From: Octopus vulgaris
Lineage: Eukaryota
DNA: 64,000 nt
Assembly: GCA_951406725.2 (NCBI GenBank)
Contig: OX597814.1
Span: 137,950,001-138,014,000 of the forward strand
Direction of reading: 5' to 3'
Shown here: positions 7,109 through 60,608 of the stretch, piece by piece
How positions within the stretch are numbered: the stretch's first letter is position 1
Layout: every line of letters starts with the position of its first letter
The notes under the pieces: generated by a model
What the model was told of the DNA's origin: nothing
The model's input: only the letters and a program-made list of their open reading frames with translations
Databases searched by the model: none
Program-made: the position numbers and the translations under genes

Positions 7109-7737
7109 GTCATTTGACTGTGGCCTTGCTGGGGCACCACCTTTAGTCGAGCAAATCGACCCCAGGACTTATTGTTTGTAAGCCGAGTACTTATTCTATC
7201 GGTCTCTTTTGCGGGGACGTAAACACACCAGCATCGGTTGTCAAGCGATGTTGGGGGGACAAACACAGACACACAAACATACACACACACACAAACACAC
7301 ACACACACACACACACACACACACATATATACATATATATATATATATATATATATATATATATATATATATATATATATGTATATATATAAATATATAT
7401 ATGTAGGTCCCGGGTTGAGTCGGGGTTAACCACAGTAAATAAGGAGCTTCTACAGGACTAGAACTGCTTCATTCAAAAGAAATCATCAGGAGCTTCCTGA
7501 TGATTTCTTTTGAATGAAACAGTTCTAGTCCTGTAGAAGCTCCTTCTATAAAATATATATATATACATATATACGACGGGCTTCTTTCAGTTTCCGTCTA
7601 CCAAATCCACTCACAAGGCTTTGGTCGGCCCGAGGCTATAGTAGAAGACACTTGCCCAAGGTGCCACGCAATGGGACTGAACCCGGAACCATGTGGTTCG
7701 TAAGCAAGCCACTTACCACACAGCCACTCCTACGCCT
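7109..7737 (-). mobile_element. tRNA-derived SINE family A, interrupted by the hammerhead palindrome
   Basis: Minus-strand head AGGCGTAGGAGTGGCTGTGTGGTAAG...GGTTCAGTCCC with A/B-box-like motifs; internal (CA)/(TA) tract. Confidence 0.85.
7488..7544 (+). ncRNA. Type I hammerhead ribozyme, intact core
   Basis: Stem I AGGAGCTTC/GAAGCTCCT (9 bp); CTGATGA 7497-7503; stem II TTC-tttt-GAA; GAAA 7516-7519; stem III CAG/CTG; GUA triplet with predicted cleavage after 7535. Confidence 0.85.
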
Positions 7738-9699
7738 GTATGTATGTACGTATCTGTTTGCCTACGTATGCACACATGCAGACGCACACACATGTGCGAT
7801 TGGCCTCTGTTTTGTTTTTCATATAGAAGCCAAAAGCGCACAATGCGCACTCGCGTGGAGTCTCTAAGATTGGAATATATACATTAGAAGCTTGTTGCAT
7901 ATCATGTAACACGTAGCCATCTTGTCCTTTGCTTCGTCAACTTTTACGATGTCCTGCTGAATGTCGCTGTGTTAAAAGTCCTGGACAGAGGCATGAATTA
8001 CATTACGGGCCAACGAATGTCTCTGGGTGGTTCAGCTACTTGGTAGAAATAATACTCCAATCTCCCTCAAATCACATCATATATAAGAATAGGACACAAA
8101 GGGTAATGAAGTCAAACATACCCTTAAAAATGATGAGATGGTCATTGCTGAAGTATTTTTGATCATAGGTCTGCTTGTTTGATAAAATAAAGTCACAGTC
8201 AAGTATTGGGGTCGGGCCAATGAAATCGCCTTGCTCCCTCCTCTGAAAATCTCTGGTGTGCGCCTAAATCAGATTCTATTATCATCCGGAATATCGTCAG
8301 CTGCTTACGGCCTTCTTCCAGTCACGCAATGCAGTCAGTGGAAGTCACACTTTGATATTCTATAGAAGGTTGGTAGTGGGCAATAATAACGACGTTCTCG
8401 AGAAAACTTTGGAGGTTAACGAAAATCAACCAGCTGGTCTGTTCCGAAGGACTTTTGGGCCGGGGCCCACGGATAATTTCCGGAAAACACTGACCTAGCA
8501 GTGCTACCGGAAGGCTTTATCGGTCTAAGATAAACTCTACTTGTACGGAGGTGCCGCAGCCAGGCCTGTTTGAGATGCGCATAGAGCGATGAAGTTGTTC
8601 TGCTCGCACTAATCCAATGCCCGAGCATTGCTGCTTTGTGGAGTTATGACGAACAGATACTCTCATGTAAAACGTGTCCCAACAAGGCTCCGAGCAAAGG
8701 GGCGAACCAGACTCGAAGGGCTAACCAGACTCCGCAGGCGGTGAAGACTGTTTTAACCGTGGTGATTTAATCCGACTCTTCTGCTTTCCTAACCCCTGGC
8801 GTTCATGCTTACCGATGACCAGCGATGAAGTATCTCCTGTGAAATAATAAACTATTATTGTTATTTATTCAGCTATTCGTGTTCCTGCCGTTTTATTCCC
8901 TTCTAGAACATTGTAGGGAAATGTGTGAGGCACCCTACAAGTGCAGATATCACACAGAGATAGATAACAAACAATAAATGTTTTATTATTATTGCTCTCC
9001 TCAGTTAAGGGGTGAAGGCTCCCAATTGGCGCTCCGCAGTAGCTAGCTTAAAAGTCCGCATGGAGTGCGAACTTTTAAGCTAGTAAGAGATTAGGTAGGA
9101 AAAAACACACGTTTTTATTGATTATGTACGATATTCTGACTCCTGAAAATAAGTAATTTTTAATCCTGGAAACGCGTAGTAAGCAAGATTTCTTTAAAAC
9201 TCTGATATCTATCTACTTTTGAGCCGGGAATGGTCTTACATTAAGTACATTACACTCCCGCTGAGTCAGTTGACAAAGATACTTAGTGTTAAACTTAAAC
9301 TGAACTATGACATGTATGAGTATTAATTACCTGTAGGGACACAGTAAGCATTGTTATCACAGTAGGAAACAGTATTGACTAATAAATCGTTTAATATAAA
9401 CTTTGTAGTATATTATTACATGAATATGCTTACATGTTAGTTTGTATCTTGTTTATGTATGGCAGGGTCGGCACTCCCAGCCAATTTCATCATTAAAAAA
9501 TTGTTTTTGATACATAACAGGGACATACCGATGCATTTCAATATAAAACTGAACAGATTTCCTCACCAGTCGGAGCACCGGGACAGATTTTTCAAATTAC
9601 GATGCTTTGGTAACATTAACTGTGTATGTATGTATGTATGTATGTATGTATGTATGTATGTATGTATGTATGTATGTATGTATGTATGTATGTATGTAT

Positions 9700-9927
9700 G
9701 CCTCTCAGCTGGAGGTCTAAAAAGACATGTTAAGAGAGTGCATATGGTGGCACCTGTTCCTCCTGCCAGCCAGCACAGTTGTCTAGTATGTAATAAAATG
9801 TGTAAAAGCTTGGCCAGACTTGAAATTCATATAAGGGCCTCACATGGCAACAATCATGAATCTTTTCAGTAAGTCTTATTGGCAATGGCTTTTCTCGTGT
9901 AACGAGGATGCAGCTGTCATATGTCAT
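9700..9927 (+). mobile_element. 3' end of an RTE/BovB-like LINE with C2H2 fingers and (TATG)n tail (copy 2)
   Basis: Same C2H2 ORF end; the 3' UTR CTCGTGTAACGAGGATGCAGC runs into (TATG)n. Confidence 0.6.
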
Positions 9928-10084
9928 GTATGTATGTATGTATGTATGTATGTATGTATGTATGTATGTATGTATGTATGTATGTATGTATGTATGTATG
10001 CATGTATGCATGTATGTATGTATGTATGTATGTGTGTATGTATGTATGTACGTACGTATGTACGTATTCTCTTTTACTCTTTTA

Positions 10085-59871: not shown

Positions 59872-60391
59872 ATGAGAAACGGAAAGCCAGTCACCGCTAT
59901 CAATGGTTACAGCGGTGGCGGAGCTGTTGCTGGTGTTGGTAAAGCAGACGGAAGCGAAGGAGACAACGATTCTTCGGAACCGATCAAACTAAAGAAAGAA
60001 CTCGGACTTCTTCATGGCTGTACCTTCATTATTGGAATTGTTGTTGGCTCTGGCATCTTCGTTTCACCGAAAGGTGTATTACTCGAAGCCGGTTCGCCTG
60101 GTTTATCTGTTATAGTATGGGCAATATGCGGTATGATGGCATTGATTGGAGCCATGTGCTATGCAGAACTAGGCACGTGTATTCCCGACTCCGGGGCCGA
60201 TTATGCTTACATTAAAGAAATCTACGGAGGACTGCCCGCTTTCCTTTATCTTTGGGTTGCAAACGTTATCATCATACCGACCGGTAATGCTATAACAGCA
60301 TTTACTTTTGCCAGTTATATACTGAATCCACTATTTCCCGATTGCGGTCCTCCGAAAGTTGCTGTGACTGTATTGGGCGCAACGTGTGTAG
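59872..60391 (+). CDS. SLC7 L-type amino-acid transporter light chain (LAT/y+LAT-like), first coding exon (exon 59830-60391)
   Basis: LKKELGLLHG..IIGIVVGSGIFVSPKGV, CYAELGT.IP.SGADYAY, and the FPDC cysteine that links to the SLC3 heavy chain in this family; acceptor TTTTACTACAG|59830, ATG 59872, phase-1 donor G|GTAAGT at 60392. No later exons recognised in the window. Confidence 0.93.
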
Positions 60392-60560
60392 GTAAGTAAC
60401 ATTTTCTGCTGTTATTGTTTCGTTTTATATTATTTATAAGCCAATCAAAATATACACATGTGTACATAAGAATATATATATATATATATATATATATATA
60501 TTCCAATATAACTCCTTATATTGAACTCTATTATTTCCCTCTATATAACCATCTCACATC

Positions 60561-60608
60561 GTCTCTGATGAAGGAATATCCCTAATATCCCAGAAACAGC
60601 TGTAAGAC
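60561..60608 (+). ncRNA. Minimal type I hammerhead ribozyme, intronic and sense to SLC7
   Basis: GTCT-CTGATGA-a GG(a)ATAT cccta ATAT(c)CC a-GAAA-CAGCTG-TA-AGAC; palindromic stem III; predicted cleavage after 60604. Confidence 0.8.

Follow-up and report, generated by a model that had tools for sequence, protein, structure and literature searches.

Endonuclease-positive Penelope-like elements (PLEs) have been described as units that insert at (TA)n targets and consist of a pseudo-long terminal repeat (pLTR) with a hammerhead ribozyme, an adjacent inverted, 5'-truncated copy at the 5' end, and a tail on one end (PMC8557442, PMC3846280). Also described for these elements are solo pLTRs, a putative TATA box within the pLTR, and short palindromes at its 5' end (PMC8557442, PMC3846280). 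The minimal hammerheads of PLEs have a type I core and a palindromic stem III, occur as scattered single motifs in truncated copies, and form opposite-strand pairs 100-700 bp apart (PMC4209133). Non-LTR retrozymes are short, non-coding hammerhead units tied to PLEs, arranged in head-to-tail arrays with circular RNAs (PMC7229834, bioRxiv 10.64898/2026.07.22.740005). Finally, a Poseidon PLE from Anolis nicks and extends both strands of AT-rich targets in vitro, its tail being defined by two internal reverse transcriptase (RT) starts on an uncut template, and mutating the ribozyme leaves insertion normal (PMC11167929). Inverted truncated copies, one-sided tails, solo pLTRs, 5' palindromes, pLTR TATA boxes, and opposite-strand hammerhead pairs have thus all been reported before (PMC8557442, PMC3846280, PMC4209133, PMC2377424, PMC11167929, PMC7229834). 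Here we analyze a stretch of 64,000 nucleotides (nt) from Octopus vulgaris (contig OX597814.1, positions 137,950,001 to 138,014,000; the window), in which palindromes and hammerhead motifs occur together.

Our results indicate that these palindromes are probably head-to-head pairs of 5'-truncated PLE ends, made as two separate complementary DNAs (cDNAs) on RNA that the ribozyme had not cut. The insertions match the known PLE insertion unit, with its inverted 5'-truncated copy, one-sided tail, and (TA)n target, and the palindromes do not turn at the predicted cut site of the ribozyme. An inverted-repeat search recovered all five palindromes that an earlier note on this DNA had listed, with arm identities of 79-98%, and every one of them falls in a repeat family that carries a type I hammerhead motif. 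The families are named A to E in window order.

7403..7553, both strands: family A insertion, head-to-head arms between TA repeats
about 7403-7491, minus strand: tail-bearing arm of family A, with an internal deletion of about 40 nt
7491-7553, plus strand: tail-less arm of family A, joined head-to-head to the tailed arm
7441-7545: palindrome 1, arm identity 96%
7491..7541, plus strand: complete type I hammerhead; core 7497-7503, predicted cut after 7535
20210..20745: family B insertion; minus-strand long arm and, from 20535, a shorter arm in inverted orientation
20270-20734: palindrome 2, arm identity 79%
20449..20495, minus strand: hammerhead core of family B, stems II and III intact, stem I damaged
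26889..27106: family C insertion, with palindrome 3 (26895-27017, arm identity 98%) and a one-sided tail to 27106
26955-26989, plus strand: decayed hammerhead of family C, the palindrome axis falling on the first base of the core
36654..36923: family D insertion, with palindrome 4 (36668-36836, arm identity 84%) and a one-sided tail; no ribozyme sequence
47991..48368: family E insertion, with palindrome 5 (48093-48356, arm identity 96%); tailed arm on the minus strand, starting inside stem II at 48235
48217, minus strand: predicted cut of family E; the tail-less arm begins 2 nt past it

A scan for the core plus three stems (cut-off score >=10, with shuffled windows as control) found two complete type I hammerheads in the window, at 7497 and 60565 on the plus strand, compared with 0.05 in each shuffled window. 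Both have the conserved core, stems I-III, and a UH cut site, and both are predicted ribozymes. The first sits in palindrome 1, the only one of the five with a complete motif, while the second lies outside any palindrome. The axis of palindrome 1 (7493) is 42 nt upstream of the predicted cut, and the minus-strand copy of its hammerhead has an altered GAAA box. Two relatives of the family B copy (L055 and L059) carry complete hammerheads. Palindrome 4 lacks ribozyme sequence because its arms begin about 43 and 63-68 nt 3' of the family D cut site, on the 3' side of the hammerhead, and palindrome 5 holds just the 3' half of the motif (48228-48217, minus strand). A complete or partial hammerhead, which had been claimed for each palindrome, therefore accompanies palindromes 1, 2, 3, and 5 but not palindrome 4. 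Moreover, the statement that all palindromes turn at a hammerhead reflects selection, since hammerhead-free local inverted repeats in the window (1798-3088, 28607-29290, 39440-39991, 46625-46675, 50885-51556, and 56234-56502) had been left out. All stems pair in the hammerhead references of seven sequence-unrelated families. No Rfam hammerhead match appeared among the best 150 of 238 window matches or in two focused scans. Many copies of family C and of family F, introduced below, have C in place of U at hammerhead position 4 (e.g., L297, L348). In addition, palindrome 3 has arms that match each other at 98% identity, whereas the best relatives match this copy at only about 81-83%; this suggests that the arms were homogenized once in place or that a diverged source gave rise to a recent insertion.

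The association extends well beyond the window. Six arbitrary 200-kb blocks of the genome (1.2 Mb) contained 105 local palindromes and 27 complete hammerhead matches, compared with 0, 0, and 0 matches in three shuffles. Twelve of the 27 hammerheads, on nine distinct palindromes, lay within 100 nt of a palindrome axis (1.8% expected), and nine lay within 30 nt (0.5% expected). Hammerhead-bearing families make up 1.2% of the sampled DNA, yet they match 31 of the 105 palindromes, a figure that is not fully independent because some family references came from the same blocks. For comparison, a short interspersed nuclear element (SINE) that accounts for 4.8% of the sampled DNA matched 7/105. The link between palindromes and hammerheads, described for the window in the earlier note, is thus far above chance genome-wide. 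Since seven of the sampled palindromes are SINE-like, head-to-head joins also extend beyond the hammerhead families; in the window, a SINE-like repeat forms such a palindrome at 50885-51556 (head-to-head, 336-bp arms, zero spacer).

A single layout is common to all families: one arm bearing a 3' tail, in many cases a tail-less arm in inverted orientation, and TA repeats outside. We sampled copies independently of their junctions, using queries from the 3' part only (for family D, the tail plus outer arm). This gave 29 of 30 loci for family A (after removal of a duplicate, with the query locus and two ends of a single element retained), 29 of 30 each for families C and D (the window copy dropped), and 20 of about 40 each for families F and G, of which F is common in the blocks but not among the five palindromes. 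Family E, for which a tail-only query returned nothing and an arm query was used, and family B, sampled with a palindromic query, stand outside the resulting pool of 127 tailed arms. An inverted partner adjoined the tailed arm at 23/29 loci in family A (a few of these partners being very short), 13/29 in C, 15/29 in D, 16/20 in F, and 10/20 in G. The tail was one-sided in 30/30 family A palindromes, and the tail-less arms have 3' ends specific to each family. The (TA)n targets that had been proposed are also evident, with TA repeats directly after the tail end at 29 of 30 family A loci and 19 of 20 family F loci against a background of 5.6%. Compared with PLE units as described in PMC8557442 and PMC3846280, the stubs here occur in thousands, both arms are often only 50-250 nt long, and tails measure about 70-80 nt instead of 30-40 nt. 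Likewise, compared with the hammerhead pairs of PMC4209133, with which the motifs here share the type I core, the palindromic stem III, and the scattered single copies, pairs are often less than 20 nt apart and some families have a longer stem III.

The origin of these families in PLEs, as first supposed, is supported by their hammerheads, by the insertion layout, and by coding parents for families A and F. The tail of family A continues into an open reading frame (ORF) on contig C27, where identical 154-bp direct repeats with a hammerhead flank an RT/endonuclease ORF with one frameshift; by its sequence, the 7441 family represents the terminal repeat of a Hydra-type PLE that codes for protein. 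Family F can be assigned in the same way to the terminal repeats of a protein-coding Hydra-type PLE: one 3.35-kb unit (L376, G000:C1:63048300-63054200) has an apparently intact 727-amino-acid ORF, direct pLTRs, and an inverted partial copy, and would be well suited to biochemical work. In family G, too, the tail enters a similar, broken ORF. [quoted passage not shown] The family A parent protein contains DKT, RWR, CxxC..E, and CxH, and the family F protein contains RWK and DKT; among 30 homologs of the family A protein, DKT is present in 29, RW[KR] in 25, CCHH in none, and the CxCx5C linker in 24. Pfam and PDB sequence searches gave no significant match. The best match of the predicted fold of the family A parent protein is a weak one (E 0.078) to T4 EndoII, which we take to be a GIY-YIG protein. 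An initial identification of this parent as Neptune was dropped in favor of Hydra after motif comparison of parent and homologs.

PLEs of the Hydra clade, as described in PMC8557442, share with these parents the C-terminal GIY-YIG domain, the DKT and RWK-type motifs, the absence of CCHH, CxxC and CxH around conserved E and N, a canonical hammerhead, and (TA)n insertion. The assignment is by motifs, and there are differences: both parents here have F at the second C of CxCx5C, and the 3' untranslated region of the family A parent spans 3.2 kb and is rich in microsatellites. The supplements of that paper may already list these Hydra families.

Some of the families may be of another kind. Family D has tandem units of 464 and 467 nt, and other copies of family B show partial tandems, so these two families, judged by their short tandem units, may be retrozyme-like; we saw no tandem units for families C or E. 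In contrast to the head-to-tail arrays of retrozymes (PMC7229834, bioRxiv 10.64898/2026.07.22.740005), the elements in the window are paired head to head, and family A, which has a coding parent, does not fit a definition of retrozymes as short head-to-tail units with no ORF. The description of these insertions as tiny, non-autonomous elements is not supported for the 7441 family, the end of a protein-coding PLE; the two possibly retrozyme-like families are those of palindromes 2 and 4.

Where the arms end was informative. Among the 127 tailed arms, three ended at the cut site, where about 5.4 would be expected if ends were uniform, while 40 ended within 16 nt upstream of the core (family A, 17/29; C, 9/29; F, 8/20), and most arms include the core upstream of the cut. 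Exact genome-wide counts for family A were 7198 just 3' of the cut, 8226 across it, 5909 over the core, and 2379 in the region 20-45 nt upstream of the core; for family F, they were 5182 at the edge of the core and 1862 at 13 nt further. These counts are rough because they also drop with sequence variation. The earlier proposal that an RNA end cut by the ribozyme sets the fold-back point is therefore not upheld by either the sampled arms or the genome-wide counts, and palindrome 5 alone has an arm that starts beside the cut. Single-arm copies, which have no palindrome, halt at the same upstream spot, so palindrome formation is not the whole cause of the pile-up. For families G, H, I, and M, seemingly sharp 5' ends proved to be artefacts of the references and were not used. 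Known PLE units differ in this respect from the three families in which 5' ends pile up just upstream of the ribozyme (PMC8557442, PMC3846280), and in the literature searched we found no earlier report of such a pile-up.

We propose that the element's enzyme would nick both strands of a TA repeat and that two separate cDNAs would be made from RNA uncut by the ribozyme, with the tail and no-tail ends corresponding to two internal RT start sites. Both cDNAs would end prematurely and pair through short stretches at their ends that are self-complementary or microhomologous, and host repair would seal the joined product. The axis would lie near the ribozyme mainly because the ribozyme is about 100-250 nt upstream of the RT start, and most stubs would be dead ends, not master copies. 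Of 84 pairs across families A, C, D, E, F, and G, 23 had a tail-less arm that extended further 5' by 10 nt or more, 21 had a tailed arm that did so, and 40 had level arms. Copying from the tailed cDNA would not yield a tail-less arm that extends further 5'. Furthermore, one asymmetric family A junction is present in each of its two orientations with respect to the tail (17:13), and one insertion (L072) has arms from two subfamilies. That either arm can be the longer, and that the junction occurs in both orientations, favors two end-joined cDNAs over self-copying; the same two observations speak for stubs that are dead ends and against a mobile mini-element. The arm lengths, both orientations, the hybrid, and the matching alleles between arms are all accounted for by two cDNAs of a single source locus. 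The use of uncut RNA as template agrees with the normal insertion of ribozyme mutants in vitro, and the same work on Poseidon shares with our proposal the nicking and extension of both strands, AT-rich targets, and two internal RT starts (PMC11167929). Those steps are drawn by analogy from another PLE, of another clade, and the joining step is our own suggestion; that study concerns neither cDNA joining nor stop points. At several junctions (L121, L341, L345, and G000:C26 near 15098500) we also observed several short repeats of the arm 5' end, which suggests slippage or re-priming during joining.

Several points weigh against this interpretation. The samples are the best-scoring 20-30 loci per query and consequently favor young copies, and at palindromic junctions the position of an arm end is uncertain by about 5 nt. 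The pile-up is not significant in families D (2/29) and G (4/20), and we found no parent ORF for families B, C, D, and E. The two arms have the same subfamily allele in 12 of the 13 loci that could be scored, for which self-copying is the simpler explanation. Lastly, later deletions and inversions at palindrome centers could mimic both the arm symmetry and the two junction orientations.

The pile-up itself may mark a true landmark on the RNA, that is, a transcription start or a 3' splice site, as opposed to the mere selection of junctions at self-complementary motifs, although we would place this reading somewhat short of even chances. In 3/3 subfamily references of family A and 2/2 of family C, a TATA box precedes the pile-up by 28-32 nt (background, 2-6%), AG is found at the pile-up in families A, C, F, and G, and a branch-like motif lies 14-26 nt upstream in 23/24 long family F arms and in 1/3 A, 1/2 C, and 1/2 G references (background, 7.9%). 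The end of a Drosophila virilis intron at the 5' end of helix I (PMC4209133) and the coincident stops of single-arm copies point the same way. However, a TATA box predicted beforehand at -41 to -48 in family F failed (0/24 long arms), family G has no TATA box, and families B and D carry TATA-like boxes yet no pile-up. The splice-site reading was arrived at after the fact, four single-arm family A copies revealed no exon-1 letters on their upstream side, and about 30-40% of family A and F arms extend past the spot. Contigs from public sequencing runs contained no joint and do not resolve RNA starts. Two single-arm family A copies (L095 and L099) end 6 nt upstream of the core with a G just before the arm, which fits a copied cap but is only a hint, one of the targets being a GA repeat. 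More speculatively, the stubs could be the PLE counterpart of retroviral strong-stop DNA, in which RT starts inside the RNA and stops at such a fixed landmark a few bases 5' of the hammerhead; we regard this as doubtful. If it is true, thousands of fixed, paired products would be a base-level record of PLE priming and stopping and would offer a possible route to pLTR regeneration by strand transfer.

Alternatively, a single cDNA could stop, snap back at a short self-complementary motif, and copy itself, with later changes at the center blurring the pattern. The matching alleles between arms fit this account, as do the commonest junctions, which fall on short palindromes or near-palindromes. 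Still, we consider it rather unlikely given the 23 pairs whose longer arm is the tail-less one, the presence of both junction orientations among copies that are 99% identical, the hybrid insertion, and the single-arm copies that end at the same spot with no palindrome. An even weaker case can be made for the whole palindrome as a self-propagating mini-element, similar to a miniature inverted-repeat transposable element (MITE) or retro-MITE, copied from master hairpins. A palindromic query did return 40 near-identical 105-bp copies among 678 candidates, but that sample was selected for its junction, and tail-only samples show many differing junctions. In addition, the same junction is present in both orientations, the ends are asymmetric, and family A stubs lack the upstream TATA-like box, making this reading very unlikely. 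A fixed master hairpin was rejected as selection bias once the tail-only queries showed varying junctions; a MITE or fold-back DNA transposon was set aside as well, the one-sided tails and varying junctions being at odds with symmetric fixed termini and a constant interior. Least probable of all is that cleavage creates an RNA end where the cDNA would run off and fold back. Palindrome 5 has one arm that begins 2 nt past the cut and three sampled arms end there, but that number is below the uniform expectation, most arms keep the core upstream of the cut, matches across the cut are not fewer than just 3' of it, and the turn of palindrome 4 is about 50 nt to the 3' side of the cut, so that the model is contradicted for families A, C, D, F, and G.

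The suggestion that such hairpins mask their own ribozymes is in line with folding predictions for palindrome 1, in which the full hairpin (-84.8 kcal/mol) is far more stable than the hammerhead fold (-15.7 kcal/mol); in a single arm, the two folds are level (-7.7 versus -7.4 kcal/mol). In these models, masking appears as a geometric by-product, with no sign of selection for it. Palindrome 1 is surrounded by direct duplications of about 0.9-1 kb, one pair at 5907-6862 and 8668-9622 (98% identical) and a second at 7750-8669 and 10592-11498 (95% identical); the second copy of the 7750-8669 duplication has no family A insertion beside its SINE.

The remaining PLE-related features of the window are as follows.

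42200-42970, minus strand: broken PLE coding remnant, RT thumb plus GIY-YIG-like stretch, matching the ORF of L257
39080-39226, plus strand: PLE protein remnant
60561..60608, plus strand: complete type I hammerhead of family I, single arm, no palindrome
42120..42159, minus strand: decayed hammerhead at the 3' end of a PLE remnant
43172..43196, plus strand: decayed minimal hammerhead-like motif of a frequent repeat family (59 matches in sampled sequences)
39325..39337, plus strand: hammerhead-like motif, 3' half only

The PLE protein remnants reported earlier are therefore present, and by their sequences they belong to a lineage other than that of family A. The larger is presumably Penelope/Poseidon-like, as judged by motifs, and its relative, the L257 ORF, matches Pfam RVT_1. 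Neither the family A proteins nor their homologs, used as queries, detected any remnant in the window, and searching for homologs with 42269-42541 gave nothing. Of the further motifs claimed outside palindromes, the one at 60565 is complete, while those at 39325, 42159, and 43172 are only decayed or half copies of hammerhead-like repeat families. The complete motif is about 170 nt from a putative exon (59776-60399, minus strand) of an amino-acid transporter gene. Three of the hammerhead-free repeats (1798-3088, 28607-29290, and 39440-39991) have long terminal inverted repeats with spacers and resemble DNA-transposon MITEs, and TA flanks the last of them. The window also holds a broken RT of the long interspersed nuclear element type (51503-53186, plus strand; Pfam RVT_1) and a DDE_3 transposase fragment (53807-54265, minus strand).

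Taken together, our analysis describes what is mostly the known PLE insertion layout in its shortest form, produced by very abundant Hydra-type families. To this it adds genome-scale signs that PLEs insert from uncut RNA with both strands extended, for which there has so far been one in vitro study. The sharp stop just 5' of the ribozyme makes the question of how pLTRs are formed a testable one. More generally, these stubs seed the octopus genome with thousands of short hairpins that might be taken for MITEs or microRNA precursors.

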